Of a DNA stretch of 64,000 nt, positions 5,331 through 47,776 are shown piece by piece (positions within the stretch are counted from its first letter, which is position 1; each line of letters opens with the position of its first letter). This stretch comes from Patescibacteria group bacterium. GTDB lineage: Bacteria; Patescibacteriota; Patescibacteriia; S139-126; S139-133. Location of the stretch: contig JBMYTV010000003.1 of the NCBI GenBank assembly GCA_049604715.1, positions 4,228 through 68,227 of the forward strand. The letters run 5' to 3'. The notes beneath the pieces were generated by a model. It was given only the letters and a program-made list of their open reading frames with translations, had not been told where the DNA came from and did no database searches. The translations under genes and the position numbers were made by a program.

Positions 5331-5335
5331 ACCTT

Positions 5336-12100: not shown

Positions 12101-12107
12101 AAATAAG

Positions 12108-13550
12108 TTATTTTTTGGTAATTATTTTTGGTTTACCTGTAGAATCTAGGTATACTCCATTAACCTGCTTTGGATAAAAGTTCTTTTCATTATATTCTTT
12201 GAATACGATACTTGGCAGAGCCTTGCTCTTTATCATCTCTAATAACTTACTATACTCTATATTCAGCCTTTTTAAATTCCTTACTATACTTTCCAGTATA
12301 ATGACTTTATCAGCATCTGTTAAATCAGCTACTTTTAAATTCTTTGAAAGCTCTAAAACTAATGTGAAAATTTCTTCTTTGCTTTTATTCTTTAACTTCG
12401 AATATGAGAAAAACTTACCGGTTAAGAATTTCTTACACTCTCTGGACTCAATGCCTGCCAAAATATGTTCTGGGTATATGTGTAGTGCGTAGAAAGTCAC
12501 ACAAACATTAGACCTACCTGTAACTGCTACAATTGGTAGATTCCAAGCTGGAAATTTTTCAACAATATTCCTTATCAACTTTGAGTCACTCTTTTTTAAT
12601 AACTCGTTTATTGTTAGCACACAGCCCTTATCTTTAATGTTGTATCTAACCAAGGGAATAGGCGTGTTGATAGTAATGATCAATTGTTTATTAACACGTT
12701 CAAAGAAAATAGATCTGGGATGGAATTGGTATAACCCAGGCACAGCATCAACGCTATCGAACAACGTCATTAACAATGAAGTGGGGAGTTTTTTTCTTAA
12801 ACTGATGGTCAGCGGTGTTTCGTAAGCCATTTTACCAGCATCAGTAGACCCGTAAACGCTACATATAGAAAAAGGGTCTCTTTGTCCCAAAACAGTTAAC
12901 AAATCATCTCTCCATTCTTCAGAAATTTTACTTCCCGTAACTAAAACTTTGTATTTCTTATTATTGTCAAGCAACTTTAATTTTTTAGCCTCTAATACTA
13001 TATCCATTACAAAAGCTGGGTGGCCTGCAAGTACTATATTTTTATAAAAATTACCTAAAGATGACAAGACTGACAATGTTCTTTCAACCGAGTATCCTGG
13101 GGTAGCTGTGGTTATATTAAATCCTTGCCTAGATAGCCCACGGCATGCAGCTAATGTATGGTGACCAGCCATCCAAAGGTCCATTGCAAAACTAATTACC
13201 ACTAAAGTGGGCTCACCTTTTTTAATGTTATACAGCCCACTAAATAACTTTTTATGTGATAATAAACTAAGCGCCTCTTGTTGATCACTTCCAAACCAAA
13301 ACGTAGGACTACCTGTTGAGCCTGAGCTGGCATAAACAATAGGAGGCTTGCTTAATTTATCCTGTAACTGATCCACTGAGTACTTCAAAATGTAACTTTC
13401 TTTCGAAGTAAGGGGTATTTGCGACCATTCTATGTATGAGCCAACCGATTTTCTTGTATTATAATCGCTTAACTCCAGGTAACTAGCGTAGGCTGGAACA
13501 TTCTTTATAGCATGATAATAAGTTTGTTTTGCGTTTACAAATCCTTGCAT
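12108..13550 (-). CDS. Adenylate-forming enzyme, PaaK / coenzyme F390 synthetase-like (ANL superfamily)
   Basis: YASSGSTGSPTFW matches the PaaK/F390-synthetase P-loop (SSG[ST]TG.P). 480 aa. Confidence 0.6.
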   Translation of the reverse strand: MQGFVNAKQTYYHAIKNVPAYASYLELSDYNTRKSVGSYIEWSQIPLTSKESYILKYSVDQLQDKLSKPPIVYASSGSTGSPTFWFGSDQQEALSLLSHKKLFSGLYNIKKGEPTLVVISFAMDLWMAGHHTLAACRGLSRQGFNITTATPGYSVERTLSVLSSLGNFYKNIVLAGHPAFVMDIVLEAKKLKLLDNNKKYKVLVTGSKISEEWRDDLLTVLGQRDPFSICSVYGSTDAGKMAYETPLTISLRKKLPTSLLMTLFDSVDAVPGLYQFHPRSIFFERVNKQLIITINTPIPLVRYNIKDKGCVLTINELLKKSDSKLIRNIVEKFPAWNLPIVAVTGRSNVCVTFYALHIYPEHILAGIESRECKKFLTGKFFSYSKLKNKSKEEIFTLVLELSKNLKVADLTDADKVIILESIVRNLKRLNIEYSKLLEMIKSKALPSIVFKEYNEKNFYPKQVNGVYLDSTGKPKIITKK

Positions 13551-13552
13551 TG

Positions 13553-14566
13553 TTACTTAGTAAAACTATTATAATTAATTAGATAATTTCCACAAATCTG
13601 TTTCGTTAAGAGTATGCTTCTGACAGCATCACTTGCCACCGCACCAGCCACCATTGAAGTTGTTCCTAACTGTGGTATTGAAACCAATGTACTACCAACT
13701 TCCTTTAGGGAACTCCGTAACCTATCTCCTGGCTCAAAACCTATTATTTTATTAGCAATTCTAATCCAATCTTGCTTGTTTAATAAATGCCCAGCATCTA
13801 CTATCTTCTCATCTTTTAATACGCCGTGAAACAACTCTTGGTCTTCACTGATGTCATACCTTTCAATGCTAATTACAACTTCTTCACCAAAGTCAGTAGC
13901 CATGACTACTGGAATTTTGTTCACTTTACAGTATTTTCTCAACTCAATTTTTATACTTATGTCATCGACAGCGTCTACTAAAACATCAATATTTTCGTTT
14001 ATCACAAAATCATTAATATTACTTTTCTGTACTCCACAATCAAAAAACTTCATATCTATAAATGGATTTACCTCCCAGGATTTTCGCATAGCAACCTCAC
14101 CTTTTAAAGAACCATAATCAACCAGGCCAGCGTTTATCCGGTTTAGGTTAGTAACCTCTACCGTGTCAAAATCTGCTAAAACAAACTTGTTTCCAACAGC
14201 CGATCGTAGTAAACCATCTAATACTTTCGAACCTACTGACATCCCTGCTATTCCAATCTTTGAATTGTATACCTTTACCTGCTCAGCTTGTCGAATCAAG
14301 TTTTTATTCCGTGAGGTAATTAAATCGACATAAAAATCTTCGCCGGGTAAACAGAAAACCCTATCTAACCAATCGTAATGAGCCCACACTCTTTTAATAT
14401 TATGGTGGCACACAAATTCACTTACCAAACTGTCACTTATACTATTCTTTAACTTTGGATTATCAATTAAAACCAACTCCCTTATACAATCATTGAAAAT
14501 ATTAACAATTTCAACTTCTGTATTGAACTTTGGTTTTTCTTCATATATTGTAGGCTTCTCAATCAC
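13553..14566 (-). CDS. ThiF/MoeB/E1-like adenylyltransferase with ~100-aa N-terminal extension
   Basis: Rossmann nucleotide-binding motif KIGIAGMSVGSKVLDGLL at about residue 105. The N-terminal extension precedes the E1 fold, as in MccB/PaaA-type peptide-binding E1-likes. Confidence 0.6.
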   Translation of the reverse strand: MIEKPTIYEEKPKFNTEVEIVNIFNDCIRELVLIDNPKLKNSISDSLVSEFVCHHNIKRVWAHYDWLDRVFCLPGEDFYVDLITSRNKNLIRQAEQVKVYNSKIGIAGMSVGSKVLDGLLRSAVGNKFVLADFDTVEVTNLNRINAGLVDYGSLKGEVAMRKSWEVNPFIDMKFFDCGVQKSNINDFVINENIDVLVDAVDDISIKIELRKYCKVNKIPVVMATDFGEEVVISIERYDISEDQELFHGVLKDEKIVDAGHLLNKQDWIRIANKIIGFEPGDRLRSSLKEVGSTLVSIPQLGTTSMVAGAVASDAVRSILLTKQICGNYLINYNSFTK

Positions 14567-14569
14567 TTG

Positions 14570-16120
14570 TTAATAGATTAGGGTATTAAAGTTCTTTCTA
14601 AATGCCTCTAAATTACTTGTGAAGTCCTTATCTTTATACCAAACAGGAAATACAGCTCTTACTTTTTTATAGAGTTTATCAGAAGATTTTGAGATTTCTT
14701 CATTTACACCCATCACATCGGTAGCCTGTGCAAGAGTAATCAATCCAACCCCGATAATTTGTTTTATAGCCTCAATAACCTGATAACTTAATAACGAAGA
14801 ATTAGTGCCCATGCTAACAATATCTTGATTGTCAGCATTTGTTGTTATGCTGTGTACATAATTAGGAAAACACAAGGTCTGTATTTCAGCGGTTGTGGAT
14901 GTGGCAACAAATTGCAACCCTTGTAAGGCTATATCAAATCCTGGCTTACGTAGATTTAGGAATGGAGGTAAGTGGTCTCGGACATTTGGGTTGAGAAAGA
15001 TATTAACATGTCTTTCTACAGTCATCGCGATACGTGATAGTCCAATCTTTACTTTATCCATCTCGAATGACACGTAATCCCCATGAAAATTTCCTCCATG
15101 TAATAGGGTATCAGCCTTTCCATTGGTTATTGGATTATCTGTTACTGAATTAATCTCGACTTCTATAACTCGTTTTGCATTTTGTATAACTTCCCAAATA
15201 GGACCGTATATCTGAGGCAAACAACGTATTGAGTATACATCTTGAACTTTATGATCAATTTTTCTCACATCGTGCTTTCCTACGTCAATTTTTTTTGCTA
15301 AATCTAATCTATGCTGTAGTAATTTTGACGTACTAAGTGCATTTCTCATTTTCTTAGCAACAAAAATCTGACCTTTATGTGGACGTAGCGCCTGGATTTC
15401 ACTACTTATAGGGTCATCAAACCCAGCCATAAGTTCATATGTGTATGCTCCTGCAACTATAGCCAAATCGATTATCTTACGTGCCTCATATAAAACCAGC
15501 GATCCAATTCCGGACATGGCCGCCGTACCGTTTATTAAGGCCAAGCCTTCCTTTGATACCAAGTTGCTAGGTTTAATTTTTAATCTTTTTAGTACGCTAC
15601 TTGTTTTTTTTACTCTACCTTTATAATAAACCTTTCCCTCTCCAATCAAAGCTAATGCAACGTGTGCTAACTGGACAAGGTCTCCGCTTGCTCCTACAGA
15701 ACCATAGCGTGGAACAGCTGGGACAATACCTGAGTTGATATATAGCTCAATTTGTTTAATAAGCGACCACCTAACCCCAGACCTACCTTTCAATAGCGTA
15801 TTTAATCGCACTAACATAACTGACATACACTGCTGTCTAGTTAAGTATTCGCCCATTCCAGTCGCGTGACTACGTATTAGGTTATATTGCAATTGATTAA
15901 TTTGCTTCTTACTCAACACGTACTGCGCCATAGGACCAAATCCTGTATTCACACCGTATGTTAAAACCGATTCGCCGATTTTCTCAACAAACTTTCTTGA
16001 CTTATCTACTTTGATTTTACATTTCGCATCTACCCTTACCAACACTCCGTTATTTGTAACCTGCCATATTTGATCAATGGTTAAATCCCCTCCCGTTAGA
16101 ACAACAGGTTTACTTGGCAT
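14570..16120 (-). CDS. MIO-dependent aromatic amino-acid ammonia-lyase/aminomutase (HAL/PAL/TAL family)
   Basis: GSVGASGDLVQLAHVAL contains the Ala-Ser-Gly triad that forms the MIO cofactor, and the context is HutH-like. The 516-aa length matches the family. Confidence 0.8.
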   Translation of the reverse strand: MPSKPVVLTGGDLTIDQIWQVTNNGVLVRVDAKCKIKVDKSRKFVEKIGESVLTYGVNTGFGPMAQYVLSKKQINQLQYNLIRSHATGMGEYLTRQQCMSVMLVRLNTLLKGRSGVRWSLIKQIELYINSGIVPAVPRYGSVGASGDLVQLAHVALALIGEGKVYYKGRVKKTSSVLKRLKIKPSNLVSKEGLALINGTAAMSGIGSLVLYEARKIIDLAIVAGAYTYELMAGFDDPISSEIQALRPHKGQIFVAKKMRNALSTSKLLQHRLDLAKKIDVGKHDVRKIDHKVQDVYSIRCLPQIYGPIWEVIQNAKRVIEVEINSVTDNPITNGKADTLLHGGNFHGDYVSFEMDKVKIGLSRIAMTVERHVNIFLNPNVRDHLPPFLNLRKPGFDIALQGLQFVATSTTAEIQTLCFPNYVHSITTNADNQDIVSMGTNSSLLSYQVIEAIKQIIGVGLITLAQATDVMGVNEEISKSSDKLYKKVRAVFPVWYKDKDFTSNLEAFRKNFNTLIY

Positions 16121-22681: not shown

Positions 22682-25600
22682 TTAACGAATCAAAAGCATC
22701 TTTTTCACCTTGTGAAACGACTCTGTTGATATGCGGTAAAAATACATACCGCTCGCAACATTTCGTGCGTCCCACTGCACATGGTGATATCCGGCATTAT
22801 GCCGCTCATCAACCAAACGAGCAACCTCCTGTCCTAGGAGATTGTATACCACGATTTTCACATGAGTATCATGAGGTAAATCAAACGCTATAGTCGTCAT
22901 TGGATTAAAAGGATTGGGGTAATTTTGATGGAGATTGTACTCTGTTGGCAATAGTGAGATGACTTCATCGTCACCAGCGCTTTGCTTAGCAAGTAGATTA
23001 GCATCATACGGAAGACCACTGCCATCTGCATACAGATCTGTAATCTCACTACTACTCAGCATCCGAGACCACATACCAAGCTGATCAACAGCGCCATTGG
23101 CATAGGGCGCATTACCGTTTTCCCAAGCACCAACCCTGAATACAGCTGCGCTGGTATTGATCGTAGTTGGCAAACCGCCAAGACTGTCGGTAAGAACACC
23201 ATCCTTGTACACGCGAACACTTCCAATTGACATATCATATACCCAGACAAAGTGGTACCACGCATTACTACTGATAGCACCAATATCCAGATATACTTGT
23301 GATGTAGTGTTATTTGTACCGTCTGCAGAAATTACTACCTGAGCCTTGTTACCACTACTAAGTTTCCTAATACATACCATATAGCTTCGATTGGGCTGGC
23401 CATCATCCTTGTAGACAACTGGAAACTTTGTTTTTGTTTCCCATGACTTTGGATGCAGCCATGCTGATATCGTAAAGCTACTGGCTAGATCAAGGCCATA
23501 CTCTGTGCCTGGTTGAATTGACAAATACTCACTGTTACTTGCTGTAAAATCAGCCGCAACATCCTGGATGCCAGCAAGCGACGTAACAGTGTTGTTGTCA
23601 GCCAAATCATTTGAACCATGGGCATCGTATCGCGTGCCACTGGTCTCATTCATCTCCCAGAAAGAAACAAGATCATCAGTCAGTGTCGCATGGTGTGCAA
23701 TATCAGGCTCACTCGGAACCATCACCGTGTCATTACTTGCTGCACGATACACCACCTGCAGCACCGGCCGTTTTGCTACATCAACATGATCAGCAGTAGC
23801 AACCTGCACGTACGATCCGCGTCCCCACACACCGGCATACTCATTCACCGTCATATCGAGGATGTCATCACCTTGCCGCAGAGCAAGTGTAGTCATGCTA
23901 CTCAGATCGATCCATGACCTTCCAGCAGAATCAAGCTCTATCACCACTGTGCTATCAAGATGCAGTGCAAAATCCGTTGGTGCAAAATACAACCGCTCAG
24001 CACCTTCGATAGGGTTAGATATTGCACCCATGTGGCTGTAATCACCTGCTGTAACCGGCAAATCGTACGTCCCGCGTGTTACCCCGAGAAAGTGCGACTG
24101 ACCTTGAGAATTCCGGTAATCAACCACATGCATCTGCAGCGTCGCAGCTACTATTTCAACAGTATCAGGCAACACTGAGGTATCAAATGGCAATGCATAC
24201 CGCCGAATATCACCCCATGCCGGCCCATCAAACTGACTTACGCCAATCTGAACCACTGTAGCATCAACCGATTCAACCACGCCAGTTGCCAGGTCATGAT
24301 GATATGACCAAGAGGTCTGGTAACCATAATTACCATCCTGCACCACTACATCAGCGGCATCAGCATAGATCAGCACGGTATCGCAATCAGCACACGCAGT
24401 TGTTGTATCATCCATGACTGTTGTGACAGTTGTAAGCACTGCTTCTGCACTTGGTGTTCCACCACGCTGGTGCGTAGATACATCAGTCAGGTCATCATTA
24501 AACGGCCAATATCCGATGAGTCCACTATCAGCGGTCGCATAATACTCTGTACTGAGCGTCACGTCTTTAGTTGCATTAATCTGGCTTTGCGTGCGAGTAC
24601 GATTCCACACACGCACTTCATCAACATAGCCATTGATCACAGCGCGATTGTAATAGTACATATTGTCATCCGATCCACCAATATACCATGGATAGTCTGC
24701 CTGCCAGGTTGACCCGCAATTACCAGGCTTTGTAGAAACTAGGTTACCATCAAGAAAAAGCTGAATACCAGCAGAGCCATTATAAGTAGCTACGATATGG
24801 TACCAACGATCAAGCTCTAAACTCACAGGATACTCTGCAACATCAGCCGTACCGCTAATAAAGCAATAGATCTTGGATGGTGTCAGACCAAGCTCAAACA
24901 CAGGATTGTTGTGCTCGTTATGCCAGTTGCTAATAATCGCACCTGTTGAAAGCGCATTCAAATACACCTTGCCTTCAAAGGTAAACTGATTACCACTCAT
25001 ACCACCAGATGCCGCCTCAACACGATCCTTATGCCCATCAAAGGCAGCGACTGTATCTATCACTGTTGTGGTTTGCTCTGCCTGCGGATTTGCAACAGTC
25101 ACTGTATATGGATACCGCACTGTTGCCAAAGTACTTAGGTTCTCTCCTTGACTAAGTACTTGTACTTCATAGCGTGAGACATCAGTTGGTAGTGTGAATA
25201 TAGGACTGAGCCATACTGTATCTTGCGCAAAAGACAGTGTGTCATCTGCAGGATTCACATTCCAGTACGACGTTCCGTACGAATCATATAGCCGCACACG
25301 GAAATTAGGCAGTACTACTTTCTGGCCATCATCTTCATCGTGATCAAATGCCACGCGCACGTACACCTGACTTTCAGGTGTATGTTCACGCTTGATTGAA
25401 TCACCAACAGCGTTACTTAAGAACACGCTCGACACATGCACAGAATCAATACCCCAGGGTTGATACACACTAAACCCAAGTGGATTTTGTGCGCCATCAA
25501 TATCCTGGTAGTCCAGTCCATCATGTGCAGACACCCATAGCTCGTGCGCACCCAGATTGTACATTGGATCCATCACTGCGCTAAATGTCAGACTGTCATA

Positions 25601-27280
25601 CGGCATTAGCGTCACACTGGTATCACCAAACATGGTAAACCGCTGATCCTGAGTCTCAAGCTCAAACCGCACAATCTGCTCGGTAGTATCGCCGCTGGTT
25701 GACGCAACAGTTGCTGTAACAACTGCACTATCATACTGCAGCGGTACTGACCCTGGCACAATACTCACTGCCGTTACTTCCAAAAGATCTGGGTTGTAGG
25801 TTGTGTTTGGGTTACCTGCAAGTACAGGAAATAAACGCTCTTGCACTTCAGGTGCAATTGCACCAATCTGCCAACTCTGACCATCTTTGGTGACAAACAC
25901 CTTGAAGGTGTAGTTGCCACTATCAGCAAACGTGTGGTTCACCGTTTGCTCATAAAAGGCATCACCCGCAACCGTCACGTTATTCCATTCCCAGGATGCG
26001 ATTGTGGGGCCGTAGGCACGCAAACGAATACTCTCGTACGTCACTGACTCACTCTCTAAATTCTTGAGCTTCACCGTAAAATCGTACGGGATGTTCTCCA
26101 CGCCAGATGACGGAATCGTCCATTGGTAGATGGATACTGCACCAGTTCCGTTGCCAGAACCACCACTTCCGCCTATACCCGCTATTGTCATCAAAGCGGT
26201 ATTACTAGCGATCTTTGTGCTACCTAACCACACCTCTACAACACCGGGCGTATTTGAATAATAGCTGGGCACATACTTCATATACCCATGATCAAAATAC
26301 TGGTATGTGTTTCCATCTAACTCATTAAACTCTTCATCGCTGGTTGGCGCACCAAGATCGGTAGGTCCGAAATACTGACCACCTGTTTTGTCAGAAAGGT
26401 TCATGTAAAAATCACGAAAACCTTCTTTCAAAAGAAATGCTTCAGTACCAGCAGAATTCAGCATAATAGCCGTGTGGCCATCATAGAATCCAGTATTGTC
26501 TCCATAAAAATCCTGGAGGGTGATACCGGACCAGTCGTGGACGAAGTATCCACCGCCGTTGTCGTTGGGTAATCCTAAATTACCAGTAAGATAAGCGAAC
26601 AAATTAGAGATTGGTTTTGACTGCTTGGAATATGAGCTTGTATGCCAGGGTGGAAAGTCGCCATATTGAGCAAGTCCCAACACCCAGGGCATAGGGTCTG
26701 TGAAATCTGATCCCATACCTGAACCATTTTCATACCCCCTGAGCCATGCAGAGCCATCATTACTTTTAGCTGTCTGTTCATCAGACAGTCGAAAAGCTAA
26801 ATGAAGATGCTCTGCTCCATCACCATTATGCGCATCATCATTGATATAACCCAAAACATCACCCGGATTAACAACGTCGCCATAGCTGTAAGAAAGTGCT
26901 GCACCACCTCTCTCCTGACTACTTCTTAGGTGACCATAGATTATTAGCAACTTAGTTGCCTCGACTAGCTCACCATAGCTATTAACAAACATAAGCACTT
27001 CCGGTAAAACAGACTCTGTTGCAGCAACTAATTCCCCATAACCCACCGCTGGACCGTAATAAACAATCTTACCCGAGGCGATTGCTTCTACAGCTGTACC
27101 TTCTAAAAGGTCAATATCTGACCCTAGATGATTCTGATTGTAGTAAAAACTACGGCCTTCGTAATAATTCCAACCGGAAGACATGGTCTGATTCGGATAA
27201 TTAAAACCCGAAACAGGACTTTGAGCAAAAAGAATACTCGAAACAAAAATGAGCGCCAACAACAAATACGAAATCTTCAT
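22682..27280 (-). CDS. Giant secreted multidomain protein: N-terminal M23 (LytM-type) peptidase, beta-sandwich repeats, two LamG-like (concanavalin-like) domains, C-terminal T9SS-type sorting domain
   Basis: Signal peptide MKISYLLLALIFVSSILFAQS. M23 motifs HLGSDID ... HLHLAF. LamG-like motifs VDEVRVWNRTRTQSQI and DQLGMWSRMLSSSEITDLY. C-terminus NYPNPFNPMTTIAFDLP...VKIVVYNLLGQEVARLV...SGMYFYRI matches the Por/T9SS C-terminal sorting domain consensus. Confidence 0.75.
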   Translation of the reverse strand: MKISYLLLALIFVSSILFAQSPVSGFNYPNQTMSSGWNYYEGRSFYYNQNHLGSDIDLLEGTAVEAIASGKIVYYGPAVGYGELVAATESVLPEVLMFVNSYGELVEATKLLIIYGHLRSSQERGGAALSYSYGDVVNPGDVLGYINDDAHNGDGAEHLHLAFRLSDEQTAKSNDGSAWLRGYENGSGMGSDFTDPMPWVLGLAQYGDFPPWHTSSYSKQSKPISNLFAYLTGNLGLPNDNGGGYFVHDWSGITLQDFYGDNTGFYDGHTAIMLNSAGTEAFLLKEGFRDFYMNLSDKTGGQYFGPTDLGAPTSDEEFNELDGNTYQYFDHGYMKYVPSYYSNTPGVVEVWLGSTKIASNTALMTIAGIGGSGGSGNGTGAVSIYQWTIPSSGVENIPYDFTVKLKNLESESVTYESIRLRAYGPTIASWEWNNVTVAGDAFYEQTVNHTFADSGNYTFKVFVTKDGQSWQIGAIAPEVQERLFPVLAGNPNTTYNPDLLEVTAVSIVPGSVPLQYDSAVVTATVASTSGDTTEQIVRFELETQDQRFTMFGDTSVTLMPYDSLTFSAVMDPMYNLGAHELWVSAHDGLDYQDIDGAQNPLGFSVYQPWGIDSVHVSSVFLSNAVGDSIKREHTPESQVYVRVAFDHDEDDGQKVVLPNFRVRLYDSYGTSYWNVNPADDTLSFAQDTVWLSPIFTLPTDVSRYEVQVLSQGENLSTLATVRYPYTVTVANPQAEQTTTVIDTVAAFDGHKDRVEAASGGMSGNQFTFEGKVYLNALSTGAIISNWHNEHNNPVFELGLTPSKIYCFISGTADVAEYPVSLELDRWYHIVATYNGSAGIQLFLDGNLVSTKPGNCGSTWQADYPWYIGGSDDNMYYYNRAVINGYVDEVRVWNRTRTQSQINATKDVTLSTEYYATADSGLIGYWPFNDDLTDVSTHQRGGTPSAEAVLTTVTTVMDDTTTACADCDTVLIYADAADVVVQDGNYGYQTSWSYHHDLATGVVESVDATVVQIGVSQFDGPAWGDIRRYALPFDTSVLPDTVEIVAATLQMHVVDYRNSQGQSHFLGVTRGTYDLPVTAGDYSHMGAISNPIEGAERLYFAPTDFALHLDSTVVIELDSAGRSWIDLSSMTTLALRQGDDILDMTVNEYAGVWGRGSYVQVATADHVDVAKRPVLQVVYRAASNDTVMVPSEPDIAHHATLTDDLVSFWEMNETSGTRYDAHGSNDLADNNTVTSLAGIQDVAADFTASNSEYLSIQPGTEYGLDLASSFTISAWLHPKSWETKTKFPVVYKDDGQPNRSYMVCIRKLSSGNKAQVVISADGTNNTTSQVYLDIGAISSNAWYHFVWVYDMSIGSVRVYKDGVLTDSLGGLPTTINTSAAVFRVGAWENGNAPYANGAVDQLGMWSRMLSSSEITDLYADGSGLPYDANLLAKQSAGDDEVISLLPTEYNLHQNYPNPFNPMTTIAFDLPHDTHVKIVVYNLLGQEVARLVDERHNAGYHHVQWDARNVASGMYFYRISTESFHKVKKMLLIR

Positions 27281-28059: not shown

Positions 28060-29283
28060 TTATATAACTCCACATATGTATAAACTATATTCACTCTCTA
28101 AATTCTTGAGCTTCACCGTAAAATCGTACGGGATGTTCTCCACGCCAGATGACGGAATCGTCCATTGGTAGATGGATACTGCACCAGTTCCGTTGCCAGA
28201 ACCACCACTTCCGCCTATACCCGCTATTGTCATCAAAGCGGTATTACTAGCGATCTTTGTGCTACCTAACCACACCTCTACAACACCGGGCGTATTTGAA
28301 TAATAGCTGGGCACATACTTCATATACCCATGATCAAAATACTGGTATGTGTTTCCATCTAACTCATTAAACTCTTCATCGCTGGTTGGCGCACCAAGAT
28401 CGGTAGGTCCGAAATACTGACCACCTGTTTTGTCAGAAAGGTTCATGTAAAAATCACGAAAACCTTCTTTCAAAAGAAATGCTTCAGTACCAGCAGAATT
28501 CAGCATAATAGCCGTGTGGCCATCATAGAATCCAGTATTGTCTCCATAAAAATCCTGGAGGGTGATACCGGACCAGTCGTGGACGAAGTATCCACCGCCG
28601 TTGTCGTGAGCGTGGCCAATATTACTGAGTAATCTGTGTTTTTCTCGAAAGAACTGAGAAGGCTTGTCATGATTCTGATCATGCCAAACTGCTTCATTAT
28701 TTTCCCAAAAAAAACCAACATTTGGATATGGCGACTCACTCTCTAACCAAGCTACAGGATCGACAAAAGAGTTAGTAGATGGGGAATCTGAACAAGGCAT
28801 TCTGCCCCATGGACTGTTGGGAATGACTTCACCAGACACAACACCAAAGTGAAGGTGGTTGCCTGATGGCCAATACCCTATTGATCCAATCGCTTCTCCA
28901 GCGTACACTAAATCATTTTCTTGCAGAGTTGACTCAACATGACCGTAAAATGAAAGAAAATACTCCGAGGTACCTTCCAGGCGATGTTTAACAATCAAAG
29001 CAACATTACCACCGCCCCAACCATTTGTACTCACCAAAAGAACAACACCATCGGCTACAGCGTATACGGAACTACCCAAGGCAGTTTCATAATCATGTCC
29101 GATATGGTATTCATCAGGAAAATAGCCCGTACCACCATTACAGCCACTAGCCAACCAACCTGCAAAATTTCCCAAACTACTACTACCTGTAGGATAATAA
29201 CAACCCGTCGCTGAATGCTGCATACTTTGTGACCAACAAAAACAAGACCAAAAAAATACTAGCGTTATTACAAACCGTTTCAT
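28060..29283 (-). CDS. Secreted M23 (LytM-type) metallopeptidase with C-terminal domain duplicated from the giant protein
   Basis: Signal peptide MKRFVITLVFFWSCFCWSQS. M23 motifs HIGHDYE...HLHFGV. The C-terminal ~180 aa are identical, at the nucleotide level too, to residues ~230-410 of the 1532-aa protein. Confidence 0.75.
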   Translation of the reverse strand: MKRFVITLVFFWSCFCWSQSMQHSATGCYYPTGSSSLGNFAGWLASGCNGGTGYFPDEYHIGHDYETALGSSVYAVADGVVLLVSTNGWGGGNVALIVKHRLEGTSEYFLSFYGHVESTLQENDLVYAGEAIGSIGYWPSGNHLHFGVVSGEVIPNSPWGRMPCSDSPSTNSFVDPVAWLESESPYPNVGFFWENNEAVWHDQNHDKPSQFFREKHRLLSNIGHAHDNGGGYFVHDWSGITLQDFYGDNTGFYDGHTAIMLNSAGTEAFLLKEGFRDFYMNLSDKTGGQYFGPTDLGAPTSDEEFNELDGNTYQYFDHGYMKYVPSYYSNTPGVVEVWLGSTKIASNTALMTIAGIGGSGGSGNGTGAVSIYQWTIPSSGVENIPYDFTVKLKNLESEYSLYICGVI

Positions 29284-38982: not shown

Positions 38983-41900
38983 ATGAGTTTTGTTCACCTG
39001 CATGTACATAGCCACTATTCCCTGCTCGATGGATTATCCAAAATCGATCAGATAATTGATACTGCCAAAACTCACAACATGCCTGCTATTGCCTTGACTG
39101 ACCATGGTGTCATGTACGGAGCAGTAGAGTTTTATAAAAAAGCTAAAAAAGCTGGTATTAAACCCATTATTGGTGTTGAAGTATATTTAGCACCAAATGG
39201 ACGTTTGAATAAAAGATCCAAAACTGACACCACTCGTTACCACTTGGTGCTGCTTGCGCGTAATTTTACTGGATATAAAAACCTAGTAAAACTTACTACA
39301 GAGGCTCATCTTAATGGTTTTTACTATAAACCACGCATTGACTGGGAGTACTTATCTGAGCATGCAGAAGGACTTGTTGCGCTGTCTGGTTGTATGGGTA
39401 GTGAAATTCCCCAAATCATATTGTCAGGCAACATAGAAAAAGCCACGAAGCGCGCCCGTGAGTACCAAGAACTATTTGGTAAAGATAACTACTTTCTAGA
39501 AGTACAGCACCACCCAAACATACCAGACAATCAAAAACTCAATGACGCCCTATTTGCACTTGGCAAGGAACTAGATATACCAGTAGTTGCAACTAATGAT
39601 GCCCACTACCCAGGTACAGATGATAATGAAGCGCATGATATTCTAATATGTCTCCAAACTAAGAAAAAGAAGAACGATACTGATCGTTTGAACTTTTTGG
39701 AAAACAATTTATCTATACTCTCCCCTGATGAAATGCGTGCTGCATTTCCAAATAACCCTGAAGTTATTTCAAACACACTAACTGTGGCTGAGCGCTGCGA
39801 TATTGAGCTTCCGCTTGGTGAAATTCAACTACCCCACTTTGAGCTTCCAGACAATGTAACAGCTGATCAGTACCTGAGGCAGTTGTGTGAGAAAAACATT
39901 GCCAAACTCTACCCAAACGAACCAGAAGAACTACGAGAACGCCTTGACTATGAGTTATCTATTATTGAAAAAACTGGCTATGCGTCTTACTTTCTGATTG
40001 TGCAAGACTTTGTCATCTGGGCAAAAGACCAAGGAATTGTTGTCGGACCAGGCCGTGGATCAGCTGCAGGGTCAATTGTCGCATATCTTACTCGTATTAC
40101 AAATATCGACCCCCTCAAGTATGAACTTCTATTTGAGCGTTTTCTCAACCCCGAACGTATCTCTATGCCTGATATTGATCTTGACTTTGCTGATACCAGG
40201 CGTGATGAAGTCATCGAATACGTGGGTGAAAAATATGGCCATGATCATGTTGCTCAAATCATTACCTTTGGAACCATGGCTGCGCGTGTGGTGGTACGTG
40301 ATGTAGGCCGCGTACTTGGCGCGTCATACTCGCTCTGTGATCAAATAGCAAAAATGATCCCTATGTTTGCATCACTTGATGAAGCACTCTCAACTGTACC
40401 AGAGCTTAAAAATATTTATGAAGAAGATGATCTTGCAAAACAGATTATAGACTCTGCTCGCAAACTTGAAGGTGGTGTGCGGCATACATCAGTACATGCC
40501 TGCGGTGTAGTAATCACAAAGGACCCACTCACTGAATACCTGCCACTGCAACACTCTGCAACTGACGACAATGCCATCATCACTCAGTTTGCAGGTGGTC
40601 CTGTAGAAGATATGGGTCTTCTTAAAATGGACTTTTTGGGACTGAAAAACCTCAGTATTATTGAGCGTACACTTACCATTGTAGAAAAAGTACATGGCGA
40701 CAGTATTGATATTGAAACAATTCCACTGGATGACCAAAGAGCTTTTGAACTTTTGCAGCGCGGCGCCACGACTGGTGTGTTTCAACTTGAATCTTCTGGC
40801 ATGAAGCGCTACCTCAAAATGCTTAAGCCAACTGAACTTGAAGATATCATTGCTATGGTAGCACTATACCGTCCAGGTCCTATGGAATTTATTTCTGACT
40901 ATATTGACGGTAAGCATGGCAAAAAGAAAATTACCTACCTTGATAAACGACTTGAACCTATTTTGAAAAAAACATACGGCATTGCGGTGTACCAAGAACA
41001 AATCATGCAAATCGCCCGTGATCTGGCTGGCTTTACTTATGGCGAAGCTGATGTTTTACGTAAAGCTGTGGGTAAAAAGATTAAAGAACTTCTTGATGAA
41101 CAAGAAGGTAAGCTAATTGATGGATTAGTACAAAATGGTCTTGATAAAAAAACAGCAGAACACATCTGGGAGTTTATCTTGCCGTTTGCCCGATATGGTT
41201 TCAACAGGTCTCATGCTGCTTGCTATGCTATGATCGCCTATCAAACTGCATATCTTAAAGCAAACTACCCCGTTGCCTTTATGGCTGCTCTACTGACTGC
41301 AGACCAAGGTAATCTTGAACGCGTTGCGATTGAGATTCAAGAATGCCGTGAAATGGGCATTGAGGTTTTACCGCCTGATGTCAATGAAAGTTTTTCTGAC
41401 TTTGCTGTAATTGCAAATAGCATACAGACAGACACCCCGCGCATTCGTTTTGGGTTTAAAGCTATTAAAAACGTTGGCAGTGGCATTATTAAAGCTATTC
41501 GTGATGAAATAAAAGAAAATGGACCATTTACCTCAATTGCAGACTTCTTGTTCCGCGTGCAAGATAAAGACATGAACAAAAAATCACTTGAAAGTTTGAT
41601 TAAGTCAGGTACATTGAACTCGCTTTGCGAACAAAAACAGTTACTTGAGAATCTTGATATGATGCTGAACTACAACCGTATTGCCAAACAAGAATCATCA
41701 AGTGGGCAGACAAATCTTTTTGGTATGATGGATGACACACTACCCCCTCTCACACTTACACCAACTGAAGAACTAGATACAGAGACGCAGCTTTTATGGG
41801 AAAAAGAATATTTGGGACTTTATATTACTGATCACCCAATGAATGCATATGCGCCATACCTAAAAGACATCTCCATTGTCCCCTGCGCTGAACTTAGTGA

Positions 41901-42444
41901 ACATGTTGATGCTGTTGTACGTATAGCAGGTGTGGTGACCAAATTACAACGTATTTTGACACGTAAAGGCGATAGTATGTTATTTGCCTCTCTTGAAGAT
42001 CACACTGGACTTACAGAAGCACTTATATTCCCCAAGCTCTTAGCTAAAACACAACATATCTGGATTGAAGGTACGACTATTTTTATACAAGGCAAAGTAT
42101 CTGACAAAGATGGAGAGATCAAACTACTTGCTGAAAGTGTACAACCTATTAACCTTGAAAAACTCAAAAACGTAACAAATGAGAAAATTCAACATGCAAC
42201 CCAGTCATCATTTGTAATTGATGATAAAGGCGACCGCATAGTGTTGCATTTACCAAAAAGGCCCCAACCAGAACTACTTGAAAAACTAAAAAACCTATTT
42301 GTAGAGCATCCTGGTGAGCATCAAGTACACCTGCGTATTGTTGAGCATGATGATGCAACCACGATTGCCACCCAATTTTCCATTGGGTATAATGAATATG
42401 TAGGTGAGAAAATAAAAGTTCTCATGTTTGAACACTTAGTATAA
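38983..42444 (+). CDS. dnaE: DNA polymerase III alpha subunit
   Basis: PHP domain N-terminus [17 protein letters not shown], polymerase core motifs, and a 1153-aa length. Confidence 0.95.
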
Positions 42445-42452
42445 GCAAACAT

Positions 42453-43607
42453 ATGCCTAAAAAAGCACGAAAAAACGTACGACAAAACCAAGTGTCTTCA
42501 TTTCACCAACGAATGACTATTGGCTTTTTAGTGGTGAGCTCATTGCTTGTATTACTTATCTTTTACTTTACTGTTGCAGAGGTACATATAAAAATAGTAC
42601 CCGAATCATCAGATTTAATGACTGAGTTTAGTGTTGAGCTTCTTCCTGATGTAGAAACAACTCTTGCTGGTACCAACATCATTCCTGCAACCATTACTAC
42701 AGGCACAGAAACACGTACCCAGACCATCAGACTTGAAGGCGGCACTCCTGTTCCAGCTGTTGCAACCGGAATGGTGACTATTATCAACAATTATTCTCGT
42801 TCGCAGCCACTTATAGCAACAACACGTCTGCTCACACCAGATGGCAAGCTCTTCCGTATCAGCGAAGGCGTAACAGTCCCAGCTGGTGGAAGTGTTGAAG
42901 TTGAAGCATATGCAGATGAAGCAGGAGCTGAGTTTGAAATTGGACCTAGTACCTTTACCATCCCTGGACTATGGGAAGGCTTGCAAGATGATATTTATGC
43001 AGAAAGCAGTGCTGACTTCACTGGTGGTACTGTTCTTGAGAAAACAGTTAATGAAAATGTCATTGACAGTAAATCTCAAGAATTTGTTGACCAGCTAACC
43101 CAAGACATCGAGCGTACTACTTACCCAGAAGAAGGATATGTACAAATTGCACGAGTAACTGGCGACGCAACCTGGGAAGCTAATGTAGAACCAGGCGCAA
43201 CTGTTGAAAACTTCCAAATCACAGTTAATATTCCAGTCACAACAGTAATGTTTGCTCAAAGTGACCTTGATAGCGTTGCAGTAAACACTTTGGTAAGCCA
43301 AACTCCACCATACCAACAGTTCCTATCTGCAGACCTCTCTCAGCTTACCTATGACATTGTTAATGTAGAAAATGATGGTAGCGGTGCAACGATTGAAGCT
43401 CAAGTAAGGGGCAAAAGCGCAAGTAGACTACAACGTGATAACCTTGATATCTCAGAACTAAAAGGCAAACAGTACGAAGAACTTATCGAACATGTAGAAA
43501 ACATCCCAGGTGTAGCTGATGTACAAATATCATTTACCCCGTCATGGCTCAAAAAGGTCCCGTCACTGCAAGATCATGTGTTTATAGAAATTATTGATAG
43601 TAATTAA
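42453..43607 (+). CDS. Membrane-anchored hypothetical protein
   Basis: N-terminal basic segment plus TM helix (MTIGFLVVSSLLVLLIFYF). The extracytoplasmic domain has no recognisable motif. It lies immediately downstream of dnaE. Confidence 0.4.
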   Translation: MPKKARKNVRQNQVSSFHQRMTIGFLVVSSLLVLLIFYFTVAEVHIKIVPESSDLMTEFSVELLPDVETTLAGTNIIPATITTGTETRTQTIRLEGGTPVPAVATGMVTIINNYSRSQPLIATTRLLTPDGKLFRISEGVTVPAGGSVEVEAYADEAGAEFEIGPSTFTIPGLWEGLQDDIYAESSADFTGGTVLEKTVNENVIDSKSQEFVDQLTQDIERTTYPEEGYVQIARVTGDATWEANVEPGATVENFQITVNIPVTTVMFAQSDLDSVAVNTLVSQTPPYQQFLSADLSQLTYDIVNVENDGSGATIEAQVRGKSASRLQRDNLDISELKGKQYEELIEHVENIPGVADVQISFTPSWLKKVPSLQDHVFIEIIDSN

Positions 43608-43624
43608 TCTTTTCATTTTTAAAC

Positions 43625-43657
43625 CCCACTTACATTTAAGTGGGGTTGATTTTTGCA
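43625..43657. terminator. Bidirectional hairpin terminator between convergent genes
   Basis: aaccccactt-acattt-aagtggggtt, a 10-bp stem flanked by T-runs (plus strand) and A-runs. Confidence 0.65.
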
Positions 43658-43665
43658 TTTTAATC

Positions 43666-44031
43666 TTATATTTCAGTTAACATCTCCTTAATACTGGGTA
43701 AAGTGAACTGGAACATACCATCTTGTGCCCGGGATTTCCGTGACTCCTCATCAATACTGACAAAATGATGCCCGATAAGATTTTTGAGCTTTTTGACTGG
43801 CTCGGTGTATTGGTCTATAGTATTAATTTTCAAACCAACATCTATTGGCCGTTCAAGTCGTAGTTCTTCAACAAGCTTGCCTATGAATGTGCCTCTACCA
43901 CAACCAAGGTTAGAATTGCCTTTGGTTGAATCAAGCACAAAATAACGAGTTCCTCTTAAGAGAAACGACTTAACTATTTTGCGCTTTTGCTTCTTTTTCT
44001 TTTTACTTGGAATAAAATCCATATCACTCAC
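43666..44031 (-). CDS. Hypothetical protein (possible truncated SAM-MTase-like fragment)
   Basis: 121 aa. A VLDSTKGNSNLGCGRGTF glycine-rich segment and a Lys-rich N-terminus. Confidence 0.3.
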   Translation of the reverse strand: MSDMDFIPSKKKKKQKRKIVKSFLLRGTRYFVLDSTKGNSNLGCGRGTFIGKLVEELRLERPIDVGLKINTIDQYTEPVKKLKNLIGHHFVSIDEESRKSRAQDGMFQFTLPSIKEMLTEI

Positions 44032-44122
44032 CTCTTTAGATTAAACAAAGCATTAGAAGAGAATCATTACTTGATTCCCCTTGATTTCTTGACCAAATAT
44101 ATCTCCATGCTATACTAGCTCT

Positions 44123-44328
44123 GTCAGAATACATGTGTATACAACCTTTATACAGGGAGAAGCAACCATAGACTGAGAGTTGTTTTATAAATAAGGTATA
44201 CATATACCACCTGATGCACATTTGTGCTACAACCTCATACATAATGAAGTGTCTCATTTTTTGAGAAATTCGGGTGGAACCGCCCATGTGGGTCCCGGAA
44301 AGCTGTATAGCTTTGTCGGGATTTTTTG
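44123..44328 (+). ncRNA. T-box riboswitch leader of thrS
   Basis: Promoter TTGACC (44089-44094), 16-nt spacer, TATACT (44111-44116). Conserved T-box sequence AAATTCGGGTGGAACCGCCC at 44266-44285, against the consensus AANNNGGGTGGNACCGCG. Terminator hairpin cccggaaagc...gctttgtcggg (44294-44320) plus ATTTTTTG. It is directly upstream of an aminoacyl-tRNA synthetase gene. Confidence 0.6.
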
Positions 44329-44407
44329 TATCTAATGACAGAATTCTAAAATGCACTATACACTTTATAAAGGAACATAACTAACCATTTAACACATCAG
44401 CTGCTTT

Positions 44408-46183
44408 ATGTCAAAGAAACCAGATTTACATAATCTATCTGACCTAGACAAAATTCGACACTCAGTTGCCCATCTTATGGCGGCCGCAGTGCTCAAACTA
44501 TGGCCAGATACCAAAATGACACTTGGTCCACCTATTGAAAATGGCTTCTACTATGACTTTGCTTTTAGTCAGCCAATCTCTGATGACGACCTACCAAAGA
44601 TTGAGAAAACCATGAAAAAAATACTTCCAACATGGAAGTCATTTGATGGTAAAAAAATATCAGCAGAAGAAGCGCAGGAGCTCTTTAAGGGAAATGAGTT
44701 TAAACTAGAAATGATCAACCAACTTGATCAAGAGAACGAAACCATTACCGTTTATACATCAGGAGATTTCACTGACCTCTGTCGTGGCGGTCACGTAGAG
44801 CAACCCAACAAGGAAATGAAACACTTCAAGCTTCTATCTGTAGCAGGTGCGTACTGGCGTGGTGATGAAGCAAACCCTATGCTTACCCGTATTTATGGCA
44901 CTGCATTTGCTACCAAAGAAGAACTTGAGGAGCATCTTTATTTACTTGAAGAAGCTAAAAAGCGTGATCACAGAAAACTAGGAAAAGATCTTGATCTATA
45001 TACATTCTCAGAAGACGTTGGGCCAGGCCTTACCCTTTGGAAGCCAAAAGGCACTGTTATACGTGATGAGCTAGAAAACTGGGGCAAAGAAACTGAACGT
45101 GCATGGGGATATGAGCGAGTTGCTACACCCCATATTGCAAAACACACGCTGTTCGAAACTTCAGGCCACCTCCCCTACTACAAAGACGATATGTACAGCG
45201 CTATGGATATTGATGGCGAGGACTATTACCTCAAAGGTATGAACTGCCCATTGCATCATGAAATCTTTTTATCTAGTGCACACTCATACCGTGACCTACC
45301 ACTTCGCTATGCTGAATACGGCATGGTCTATCGCTATGAACAATCAGGTACCTTATTTGGACTTATGCGTGTACGTTCAATTGAACAAAATGATGCACAT
45401 ATCTACTGTACTATGGACCAAGCAGAGGAAGAATTCTTGCAAGTACTCAAACTTCATGAGTATTATTACCAAAAACTTGGCCTAACTCCAGATGACTATT
45501 ATATTTTGATTGGCCTCCCGGATGAAAGTAAACGTGATAAATATCATGGCGACAAAGAACTTTGGGACAAAGCAGAAGCCATGATGCGATCAGCTATTGA
45601 GAAATCAGGCATCAAAGCCGTAGATGATATTGGCGGCGCTGCCTTTTATGGACCTAAAATTGATATTGTCATCAAGTCAGCTATTGGCCGCGAATTTACA
45701 ATCTCAACTAACCAGCTTGACTTGTTTATGCCGCGCCGGTTCAACCTCCAATACACCAATGATAAAGGTGAAAAAGAATACTGTGCGGTTATTCACCGAG
45801 CCCCGCTTGGATCACACGAAAGGTTTGTTGGCTTTTTGATTGAGCACTTTGCTGGCGAGTTCCCGCTATGGCTCTCGCCTGTGCATGTTAGCCTACTTTC
45901 AGTAGGCGCTGATCACCATGACTTTGTCAAAGAGCTAGCCAGTGAACTTAAGAAAAGCGGACTTCGAGTTGAAGTTGATAATTCTGATGAAACAGTTGGT
46001 AAAAAGATTCGCCATGCTGCAACACAAAAGATTCCGTATGTTCTCGTCATAGGAGATAAAGAAATGAACTCAGATAAACTGCATGTACGTGTTCGTGGAC
46101 AAGAAGAGCTCCTTGAAGTCGACAAAGATACTTTTGTTAAAGGCATACAAAAGAAAATCCAAGACAAAGAGCTATCACTATAA
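44408..46183 (+). CDS. thrS: Threonyl-tRNA synthetase (lacks N-terminal TGS domain)
   Basis: The editing domain starts at HSVAHLMAAAV. Class II motifs are present (FRVRSIEQNDAHIY; GERFVGFLIEH), and so is a C-terminal anticodon-binding domain. 591 aa. Confidence 0.9.
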   Translation: MSKKPDLHNLSDLDKIRHSVAHLMAAAVLKLWPDTKMTLGPPIENGFYYDFAFSQPISDDDLPKIEKTMKKILPTWKSFDGKKISAEEAQELFKGNEFKLEMINQLDQENETITVYTSGDFTDLCRGGHVEQPNKEMKHFKLLSVAGAYWRGDEANPMLTRIYGTAFATKEELEEHLYLLEEAKKRDHRKLGKDLDLYTFSEDVGPGLTLWKPKGTVIRDELENWGKETERAWGYERVATPHIAKHTLFETSGHLPYYKDDMYSAMDIDGEDYYLKGMNCPLHHEIFLSSAHSYRDLPLRYAEYGMVYRYEQSGTLFGLMRVRSIEQNDAHIYCTMDQAEEEFLQVLKLHEYYYQKLGLTPDDYYILIGLPDESKRDKYHGDKELWDKAEAMMRSAIEKSGIKAVDDIGGAAFYGPKIDIVIKSAIGREFTISTNQLDLFMPRRFNLQYTNDKGEKEYCAVIHRAPLGSHERFVGFLIEHFAGEFPLWLSPVHVSLLSVGADHHDFVKELASELKKSGLRVEVDNSDETVGKKIRHAATQKIPYVLVIGDKEMNSDKLHVRVRGQEELLEVDKDTFVKGIQKKIQDKELSL

Positions 46184-46186
46184 AAC

Positions 46187-46218
46187 AAAAGTGCTACTTG
46201 GATATTTGTAGCACTTTT
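46187..46218. terminator. Bidirectional hairpin terminator
   Basis: aaaagtgctac-ttggatattt-gtagcactttt, a 10-11-bp stem between convergent thrS and the membrane-protein gene. Confidence 0.6.
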
Positions 46219-46793
46219 TAAAGCTTTTTGATGATGGATTTTGCTCGCTTACTGCGATGGTGAAAATAATATCCAACCACAATCGCTGTTGCGGCAATAA
46301 CTAACCATGGGATATCTGAGAGAAAATTATAAATCGCTGTGTACGCAGCAAGTCCTGCCTTCAGTATAGAACTCAACATCATAGCCCACATACGAGCATC
46401 ACGGAAAAATACTGCAGCTTTTGTTATCTCTGGATGCACTAAGGCAATTACTGTAAGAAGTGTGAGCTCAAATCCTGTGACAGGTAAAAGACCAAAAACG
46501 AAAATCAATAAAGCAAAACCTACTCGAGAACGCTGATCAAGGTCCAAAATCAAATCAACGACAAATCCACAATGATTATGCAGTAGTGTTGACGGACTGT
46601 CTCCATTTTGTTTGGATCTATGTAGTGTTCGAAAGTACTTGCTCCACAGCATAGTATACTTTAGGAACGAAAGTGCAATCAGCGCCATACAAAACCCAAA
46701 CAAACCAATATGTGGTACCAGCATTTTCTTTGCTGACTCTGGGATACCAAAAAGTCTGATAAAGATTTCAACTAAATCTAGCTGCTCTACCAT
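46218..46793 (-). CDS. Integral membrane hypothetical protein
   Basis: 4-5 predicted TM helices. No confident family assignment. Confidence 0.4.
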   Translation of the reverse strand: MVEQLDLVEIFIRLFGIPESAKKMLVPHIGLFGFCMALIALSFLKYTMLWSKYFRTLHRSKQNGDSPSTLLHNHCGFVVDLILDLDQRSRVGFALLIFVFGLLPVTGFELTLLTVIALVHPEITKAAVFFRDARMWAMMLSSILKAGLAAYTAIYNFLSDIPWLVIAATAIVVGYYFHHRSKRAKSIIKKL

Positions 46794-46849
46794 CTCGATA
46801 TCTCCATTTGTTTTGTTAATCTACATTTGTTTTGATATAACCACATCAC

Positions 46850-47776
46850 ATGCAAAAAGAAAAGCCACAAATCATCTGCATAGTCGGCCCTACAGCATCT
46901 GGTAAAACCAGCGCTGCAATCGACTATGCCAAAAAACACAGTGGATACGTGATCTCAGCTGACTCAAGGCAGCTGTACCGTGGTATGAATATCGGCACTG
47001 CCAAACCAGTTGGCAAAATGCATAAACTCCCTGATATGGATTTGGAAGCGTATGTGGTTGAAGATGTTCCTCACTTTATGATTGATATCGCTGATCCAGA
47101 CAACCCTCTCACACTTGCCGACTACCAAGAGCAGGTGTATACAATTCTACAAAATGAGAACTTACAAAAGCACTACAAGACCCCACTCCTTGTTGGTGGC
47201 ACAGGACTATACATACAAAGTATTGTTGATAACTATACACTACCACATGGCGAGCCAAACCAGGACCTCAGAGTCAATCTAGAATCAAAGGACCTAGAAG
47301 AGCTACAAACTATGCTGCAAGAGCAAGATCCACAAAGTTATAAGGTTATTGATATACAAAATAAACGCCGTCTTATCCGGGCTCTAGAGCATACACTCAC
47401 AACAGGTGATTCATTTGCAGATGCACAAAGGGCTAACAAATCACCATATACATTTATTTTATATGGCATATCTGTACAAAAAGATATTCTGCATACTCGT
47501 ATAAATACAAGGGTTGATGAGATGATCAAAAGTGGACTTATAGAAGAAGTACGATCACTGTATACAAAATATGGCAAAATTCAAACCCTCGACACTATCG
47601 GATACACTGAGGTTATCAACTACCTTAATGGTAACTTAGAAAAACAAGAAGCAATTGAGCAAATAAAAGTTCACACTAGGCAATATGCCAAACGGCAAAT
47701 GACGTGGTTCAAACGAGACAAACGTATTCAGTGGACAGAGGATAGTAGTACAATTAGTAAAACACCTACATTGTAG
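46850..47776 (+). CDS. miaA: tRNA dimethylallyltransferase
   Basis: P-loop ICIVGPTASGKTSAAIDYAKK, the ADSRQLYRGMNIGTAKP motif, and an IPP-transferase-typical length. Confidence 0.85.
   Translation: MQKEKPQIICIVGPTASGKTSAAIDYAKKHSGYVISADSRQLYRGMNIGTAKPVGKMHKLPDMDLEAYVVEDVPHFMIDIADPDNPLTLADYQEQVYTILQNENLQKHYKTPLLVGGTGLYIQSIVDNYTLPHGEPNQDLRVNLESKDLEELQTMLQEQDPQSYKVIDIQNKRRLIRALEHTLTTGDSFADAQRANKSPYTFILYGISVQKDILHTRINTRVDEMIKSGLIEEVRSLYTKYGKIQTLDTIGYTEVINYLNGNLEKQEAIEQIKVHTRQYAKRQMTWFKRDKRIQWTEDSSTISKTPTL

Follow-up and report, generated by a model that had tools for sequence, protein, structure and literature searches.

Gene Content of the Window and the thrS Locus

The 64-kb stretch of DNA analysed here (64,000 nt, referred to below as the window) belongs to a Patescibacteria MAG, and the impression of an earlier sequence-only reading, that it came from a reduced and non-Firmicute genome, was right. 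The gene of main interest is thrS. Its 591-aa product carries the Pfam domains tRNA_SAD, tRNA-synt_2b (class II core) and HGTP_anticodon (anticodon-binding), in agreement with the assignment made in that reading, and an exact protein match is annotated as threonine--tRNA ligase of a Patescibacteria group bacterium. The gene order dnaE, a gene for a 384-aa protein of unknown function (p384), thrS and miaA extends over positions 38983-47776 and is kept across distant lineages of the Candidate Phyla Radiation (CPR), with or without a T-box (contigs L001, L038, L043, L045, L073, L135 and L140). The only other aminoacyl-tRNA synthetase locus near the window is pheST, of which pheT crosses the right end, and the pheST leader lies beyond it.

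Elsewhere the window encodes a histidine kinase and, at 22682-27280 on the reverse strand, a 1,532-aa protein combining Peptidase_M23 and Laminin_G_3 (concanavalin-like) domains with a C-terminal Por_Secre_tail, which is a type IX secretion sorting signal and unexpected for a Patescibacterium; a second M23 protein is encoded at 28060-29283. Four adjacent genes at 11030-16120 (reverse strand) encode an aromatic amino acid lyase (516 aa), a ThiF-like protein, a 480-aa protein lacking a Pfam match and a nitroreductase-like protein for which the matches are weak, and they may constitute a small biosynthetic cluster. Two tandem paralogues of cofactor-independent phosphoglycerate mutase (3759-6901, reverse strand) adjoin enolase and phosphoglycerate kinase. 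Just past the left end of the window, a contig from the same sample ends in a gene for a 23S-rRNA intervening-sequence protein (L082:16153-16386), and another gene of this kind occurs near thrS in the related contig L165.

Judged from its sequence, the intergenic region 5' of thrS is a genuine but divergent T-box riboswitch, and all the sequence features that the sequence-only reading had named within it were found where it had placed them. The elements of the leader and the regulated gene are as follows.

44089-44116 (+): sigma-70-type promoter; -35 TTGACC at 44089-94, 16-nt spacer, -10 TATACT at 44111-16
44108-16 (+): extended -10 of the leader promoter, TG-n-TATACT, with TG at 44108-09
44123-44215 (+): Stem I
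44123-27/44211-15 (+): Stem I lower helix, GUCAG/CUGAU
44135-42/44196-44203 (+): Stem I upper helix, above the internal specifier loop
44148-50/44188-90 (+): Stem I 3-bp helix
44151-60 (+): Stem I AG bulge, UACAGGGAGA
44161-66/44179-84 (+): Stem I distal helix, 6 bp
44167-78 (+): Stem I distal loop, CAUAGACUGAGA
44206-44209 (+): specifier ACC (Thr) with the conserved 3' purine A44209, predicted to pair with anticodon GGU
44216-44227 (+): mini-hairpin GCAC-AUUU-GUGC, 12 nt, in the place of Stem II
44228-44246 (+): single-stranded linker, 19 nt, 3' of the mini-hairpin
44247-51 (+): purine string AAGUG of the discriminator domain
44252-66 (+): Stem III, UCUCA-UUUUU-UGAGA
44266-44285 (+): T-box sequence, AAATTCGGGTGGAACCGCCC
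44267-68 (+): AA following Stem III
44269-44299 (+): antiterminator, UUCGGG-UGGAACC-GCCC...GGGU-CCCGGA, -12.2 kcal/mol
44269-74/44294-99 (+): antiterminator helix A1
44275-81 (+): T-box bulge UGGAACC, 7 nt; UGGA at 44275-78 predicted to pair with the tRNA 3' NCCA
44282-85/44290-93 (+): antiterminator helix A2
44286-89 (+): antiterminator loop AUGU
44294-44327 (+): intrinsic terminator; hairpin at 44294-44320, -16.6 kcal/mol, then U-tract
44294-44304 (+): terminator 5' arm, followed by loop GUAU at 44305-08, 3' arm at 44309-20, A, and TTTTTT at 44322-27
44408-46183 (+): thrS, 591 aa, directly downstream of the leader

The promoter, TTGACC and TATACT separated by 16 nt, scored 10 of 12 in a promoter scan, with the TG, and it is conserved in the nearest relative, L001, the ThrS of which is 76% identical to that of the window and which carries TTGACA-16-TATACT at the aligned position. 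Transcription is predicted to start near G44123, the first base of Stem I, about 7 nt past the -10 hexamer.

Match to the T-Box Family

Using cmsearch, the Rfam T-box model RF00230 matched positions 44112-44300 of the forward strand over its entire length (model positions 1-219) with 36.8 bits, corresponding to an E-value of 1.2e-6 on the 531-nt intergenic region and of 1.5e-4 on the whole window. With E-value reporting, it was the top match among 4,227 Rfam families across the 64 kb and the sole notable one; at gathering thresholds, none of these families matches anywhere in the window. The search that the sequence-only reading had proposed as a check was thus significant and full-length, yet the score falls short of the gathering score of 93 in the Rfam release used, such that standard annotation pipelines would miss the T-box. 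The inclusion cut-off of TBDB is 15 bits, which the leader clears, and the thrS leaders of four of the 12 further CPR contigs described below score 27-54 bits against RF00230 under Rfam scoring. We attribute the low bit score to departures from the canonical T-box in the K-turn, the S-turn, the distal loop, Stem II and the frame of the specifier.

Stem I and the Specifier

Stem I was delineated from the Infernal alignment to RF00230, the MFE fold and a consensus structure that RNAalifold, unguided, derived from the window and L001. The last of these recovers Stem I with ACCAC unpaired, Stem III and the terminator, and 12 of its 46 pairs show double compensatory changes; six Stem I pairs, three of them in the distal helix, are changed on both sides between the window and L001 with pairing kept, and the distal helix contains no disruptions. 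As anticipated in the sequence-only reading, folding of Stem I yields a specifier loop 5' of the T-box which carries the Thr codon ACC followed by the purine A, and ACC-A is unpaired in both the MFE fold and the unguided consensus. C44210 sits between A44209 and the lower helix, and the 3' side of the loop thus reads ACC-A-C (44206-10). The three long-stem leaders (window, L001 and L036) share this ACCAC without variation. The ACC lies in the '-1' frame of TBDB, one nucleotide farther from the lower helix than the default '+0' frame; the Infernal alignment has CCA at the position of the codon, with low posterior probability. In TBDB, the specifiers preferred for Thr are of the ACC and ACA types (TBDB preprint).

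Farther up the stem, the AG bulge ACAGGGAGA and the distal loop CAUAGACUGAGA align, as sequences, to AGAGA and GGUGaaA of the model with high posterior probability, and both are conserved in L001 and L036; the distal loop reads ACUG where the consensus is GNUG. No K-turn is visible on inspection of the sequence, in which UCUG stands opposite a single U and tandem G.A pairs are absent. This UCUG/U site lies between GC/GC pairs and the Stem I lower helix, an arrangement that is identical in L001, and if transcription begins near 44123 as predicted, the basal GC pairs would not be part of the RNA. The AGUA/GAA consensus of the S-turn (loop E) is likewise absent above the specifier, both in the window, where the two sides read AAUACAU and AUAU, and in L001, where they read ACCAUAG and AC.

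Discriminator Domain, Antiterminator and Terminator

Stem II is missing or vestigial and no Stem IIA/B pseudoknot was identified in the leader. The counterpart in L001 of the mini-hairpin at this position is GUCA-CAUUC-UGAC, in which three of the four pairs are changed on both sides, as read by hand because MAFFT misaligns the mini-hairpin. The discriminator domain shows the arrangement of RRRxG, Stem III and AA (PMC7583486), here AAGUG, Stem III and AA, and the same arrangement occurs in all nine CPR leaders that have a Stem III.

The T-box sequence AAATTCGGGTGGAACCGCCC is present at 44266-44285, as the sequence-only reading had it, and the terminator that it had described downstream is borne out as a hairpin of 11 pairs, CCCGGAAAGCT-GTAT-AGCTTTGTCGGG, with one bulged G (44315) on account of which a simple terminator scan had missed it. 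The proposed alternation between the two structures also stands, in that 44294-44299 forms both the 5' arm of the terminator and the 3' strand of A1, and the folding energies of the terminator and the antiterminator (-16.6 versus -12.2 kcal/mol) suggest that the terminator would be the default state.

The UGGA of the bulge predicts U73 as the discriminator base of tRNA-Thr. ARAGORN found no tRNA genes in the 64-kb window, nor in contigs of the same sample which end within the window or 4.6 kb past its left end. Across 163 loci (1.55 Mb) it detected no tRNA-Thr in CPR contigs, the only examples among 169 loci being in the non-CPR contigs L157 (U73) and L160 (A73), and four loci added later to the survey carried no tRNA genes of any kind.

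Distribution among CPR Relatives

In 185,579 species genomes, Patescibacteria MAGs (WWE3, Woesebacteria, Saccharibacteria, Magasanikbacteria and other lineages) account for nearly all of the nearest ThrS proteins, with a best identity of 76%, and searches of genomes, metagenomes and 5.8 billion proteins yielded none closer. Twelve further distinct CPR contigs have a T-box core on the coding strand just 5' of thrS (L001, L036, L038, L043, which equals L141, L045, L070, L073, L135, L137, L140, L164 and L168). In all 13 leaders, including that of the window, the bulge UGGAACC is invariant, the specifier is a Thr codon followed by A (ACC throughout, but ACA in L043), and the leader ends in a terminator hairpin and a U-tract. 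Most close relatives are without a T-box, among them L165 (69% ThrS identity), L166 (67%) and L002-L035, and retention of the element is therefore patchy; among five extra contigs, a short-stem T-box is present in two and none in three.

Stem I is very short in 10 of the 13 leaders (L038:2792-2975, L045, L140, L043/L141, L070, L073, L135, L137, L164:100-345 and L168:2500-2790), where it consists of a hairpin following GUGAUUG with the specifier in an apical loop of 7-9 nt. The loop reads CUACCAA, or CUUACAAAA in L043, and holds ACC-A or ACA-A. All ten of these short-stem leaders nonetheless finish in an intrinsic terminator and U-tract; hitherto, an ultrashort Stem I has been reported for the translational ileS T-boxes of actinobacteria.

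Some of the loci show peculiarities of their own. In L001 (2665-3000), about 335 nt separate the end of the T-box terminator from the thrS ATG, and a small ORF may lie in this interval on the opposite strand, which makes direct control of thrS less certain there. For L164 (260-2197), the public ThrS call (645 aa) begins 5' of the T-box core at 286 and swallows the antiterminator and terminator as coding sequence, an annotation artefact arising because the leader went unrecognised. L043 (2467-3000, equal to L141:9467-10000) has a 62-nt insertion in the A2 loop of the antiterminator, and its terminator is separated from thrS by about 500 nt of palindromic repeats rich in G+C.

Covariation

A structural alignment of 11 leaders covering Stem III, A1 and A2 was made by hand and padded with N, because MAFFT put the helices of the discriminator domain out of register. 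Standard pairs occupy 96.6% of its cells, with 93.9% for A1 and 96.7% for A2, percentages which are biased upward, for Stem III especially, because the alignment was built around the structure; the A1/A2 register is fixed by the invariant bulge. Double changes occur in 15 of the 21 pairs, comprising 7 of the 8 in Stem III and 8 of the 13 in A1 and A2. None of 500 shuffles reached the observed pairing and double-change values, and in controls on the whole structure, for which the partners were displaced by 1-3 columns, 33-59% remained paired. Covariation thus supports the predicted leader helices, and the compensatory changes between the window and L001, which keep every helix, point to continuing selection on structure.

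Comparison with Known T-Boxes

T-boxes on thrS are conserved in nearly all Firmicutes (PMC2494555) and, outside that phylum, T-boxes have been reported from Actinobacteria, Chloroflexi, Deinococcus-Thermus and a few Proteobacteria (PMC2494555; TBDB preprint). A full-text literature search found no paper linking a T-box to Patescibacteria or the Candidate Phyla Radiation; the five papers in which riboswitches and Patescibacteria both occur touch on them in passing, and one of these, PMC11665869, names riboswitches as a possible genetic tool only.

The leader shares with the class I, Thr-specific leaders of Bacillus subtilis thrS and thrZ the regulated gene, a Thr specifier ending in C, a UGGN bulge, competition between antiterminator and terminator, and the order Stem I, Stem III, discriminator. 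It differs from them in its Patescibacteria host, in that the consensus sequences of the K-turn and S-turn are not evident, and in that a 12-nt hairpin and a linker replace Stem II and Stem IIA/B.

In architecture, the leader is closest to the minimal glyQS type of B. subtilis, G. kaustophilus and O. iheyensis, in which Stem I is likewise long and bears an AG bulge and a distal loop, a functional Stem II or IIA/B is lacking, a linker connects to Stem III and the discriminator, and regulation acts at the level of transcription (PMC7583486). The base of Stem I forms a canonical K-turn in the glyQS leaders and their specifier is for Gly, whereas in the window a small hairpin is kept at the Stem II site, the specifier is for Thr and the K-turn is not evident.

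Two further systems provide partial parallels. The ileS T-boxes of actinobacteria (Mycobacterium, Nocardia) also occur in a non-Firmicute phylum on a single aminoacyl-tRNA synthetase gene, and their ultrashort Stem I resembles the apical-loop specifier hairpin of 10 of the 13 CPR leaders, the window's not among them, its Stem I being long. In contrast to the ileS T-boxes, which regulate translation by means of a sequestrator, the CPR leaders, short and long, all end in an intrinsic terminator, and transcriptional T-boxes are considered generally to require a long Stem I (PMC7583486). The ileS T-box of Staphylococcus aureus, according to work cited in PMC7583486, has been proposed to be without a K-turn; it resembles the window leader as a T-box candidate in which a K-turn is not recognisable, and differs from it in amino acid and phylum.

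Proposed Mechanism and Alternative Readings

The leader is, in our view, very probably a class I, transcription-attenuating T-box through which tRNA-Thr(GGU) specifically regulates thrS in this Patescibacteria (CPR) bacterium. Transcription would begin near 44123 and Stem I would fold first, presenting the specifier ACC (44206-08), stacked on A44209, for pairing with the GGU anticodon, while the tRNA elbow is expected to stack on a platform, in T-boxes an interdigitated double T-loop, made by the AG bulge and the distal loop. The UGGA of the bulge could then pair with the 3' NCCA of a tRNA-Thr that is uncharged and has this end free, and this pairing, together with the purine string of Stem III, would stabilise A1/A2 and allow RNA polymerase to read into thrS. 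Threonylated tRNA would be unable to dock, in which case the more stable terminator would form and transcription would stop about 80 nt before thrS.

It is unlikely that the leader is a decayed relic unresponsive to tRNA and left with the role of a leaky, constitutive terminator or of an inert 5' UTR. Such decay would be consistent with the low Rfam score, with the reduced Stem II and the K-turn and specifier S-turn that are not evident, and with the loss of the element in most close relatives, so that selection for the T-box is not universal; against this, the UGGAACC bulge, ACC-A, RRRxG-AA and the overlap of antiterminator and terminator are intact and conserved on a diverged background, every helix is maintained relative to L001 despite 76% ThrS identity, and glyQS-type T-boxes function without Stem II (PMC7583486). 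The downstream gene being thrS already speaks for a Thr specifier, and a T-box of other or dual specificity, reading CCA (Pro, default +0 frame) or CAC (His), is very unlikely. With the lower helix as folded, the default frame of TBDB (positions 2-4 counted from the loop's 3' end) does give CCA, which the Infernal alignment also has in the codon slot, and a T-box with two codons is known; but only Thr fits all 13 leaders, since ACA-A-A of L043/L141 would read CAA in the other frame, the expected purine follows ACC (A) and not CCA (C), and TBDB admits the -1 frame where this agrees with the gene downstream.

The alternative helix is a G+C-rich hairpin with six U's directly after it, a design common to all the homologous leaders, and it ends 80 nt before the ATG and overlaps no Shine-Dalgarno-like sequence. 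A translational T-box with a sequestrator hiding the ribosome-binding site is consequently highly improbable, even though such T-boxes dominate in Actinobacteria, the best-studied other non-Firmicute phylum. The probability that there is no RNA element at all, the region encoding a 106-aa protein on the opposite strand (44036-44356) or resembling a T-box fortuitously, is in our estimation negligible. There is indeed an open reading frame of 106 codons beginning with GTG, which the sequence-only reading dismissed. We also regard it as spurious, given that it has no Pfam match and, across 1.5 Mb of related loci, no tblastn match with an E-value below 4, is missing from an independent gene call, and is broken in L001, where the homologous region has stops in all three reverse frames; a chance resemblance we consider excluded by the Infernal E-value and the 12 further independent occurrences 5' of thrS. 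We therefore retain the reading of the leader as a real, divergent tRNA-Thr T-box attenuator that is probably functional.

A broader proposal, which we put forward tentatively and hold to be possible without favouring it, is that the leaders represent a divergent and hitherto unrecognised T-box lineage of Patescibacteria, seen only on thrS and distributed patchily over several CPR classes within the conserved dnaE-p384-thrS neighbourhood. Its long-stem form (window and L001) would work without a K-turn, and the commoner form would combine an ultrashort apical-loop specifier hairpin with an intrinsic terminator, a combination unforeseen by the current view that a transcriptional T-box needs a long Stem I with a double T-loop.

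Significance

The mechanism proposed is that of the textbook T-box; the novelty lies in the phylum, in a lineage that escapes the Rfam threshold and in some structural economies. T-boxes have been regarded as essentially a Firmicutes system and the finding adds a large and poorly understood phylum to their distribution. The phyla that bear T-boxes belong mostly to the Terrabacteria and the CPR is often placed near Chloroflexi, which together render an ancient origin of the T-box plausible. Because of the gathering threshold, the entire CPR T-box lineage stays hidden from routine annotation. The CPR leaders offer natural test cases for a T-box without a K-turn and for a short Stem I coupled to transcriptional control and, in organisms that are obliged to import amino acids, the thrS leader would be one of very few predicted cis-regulatory RNAs.
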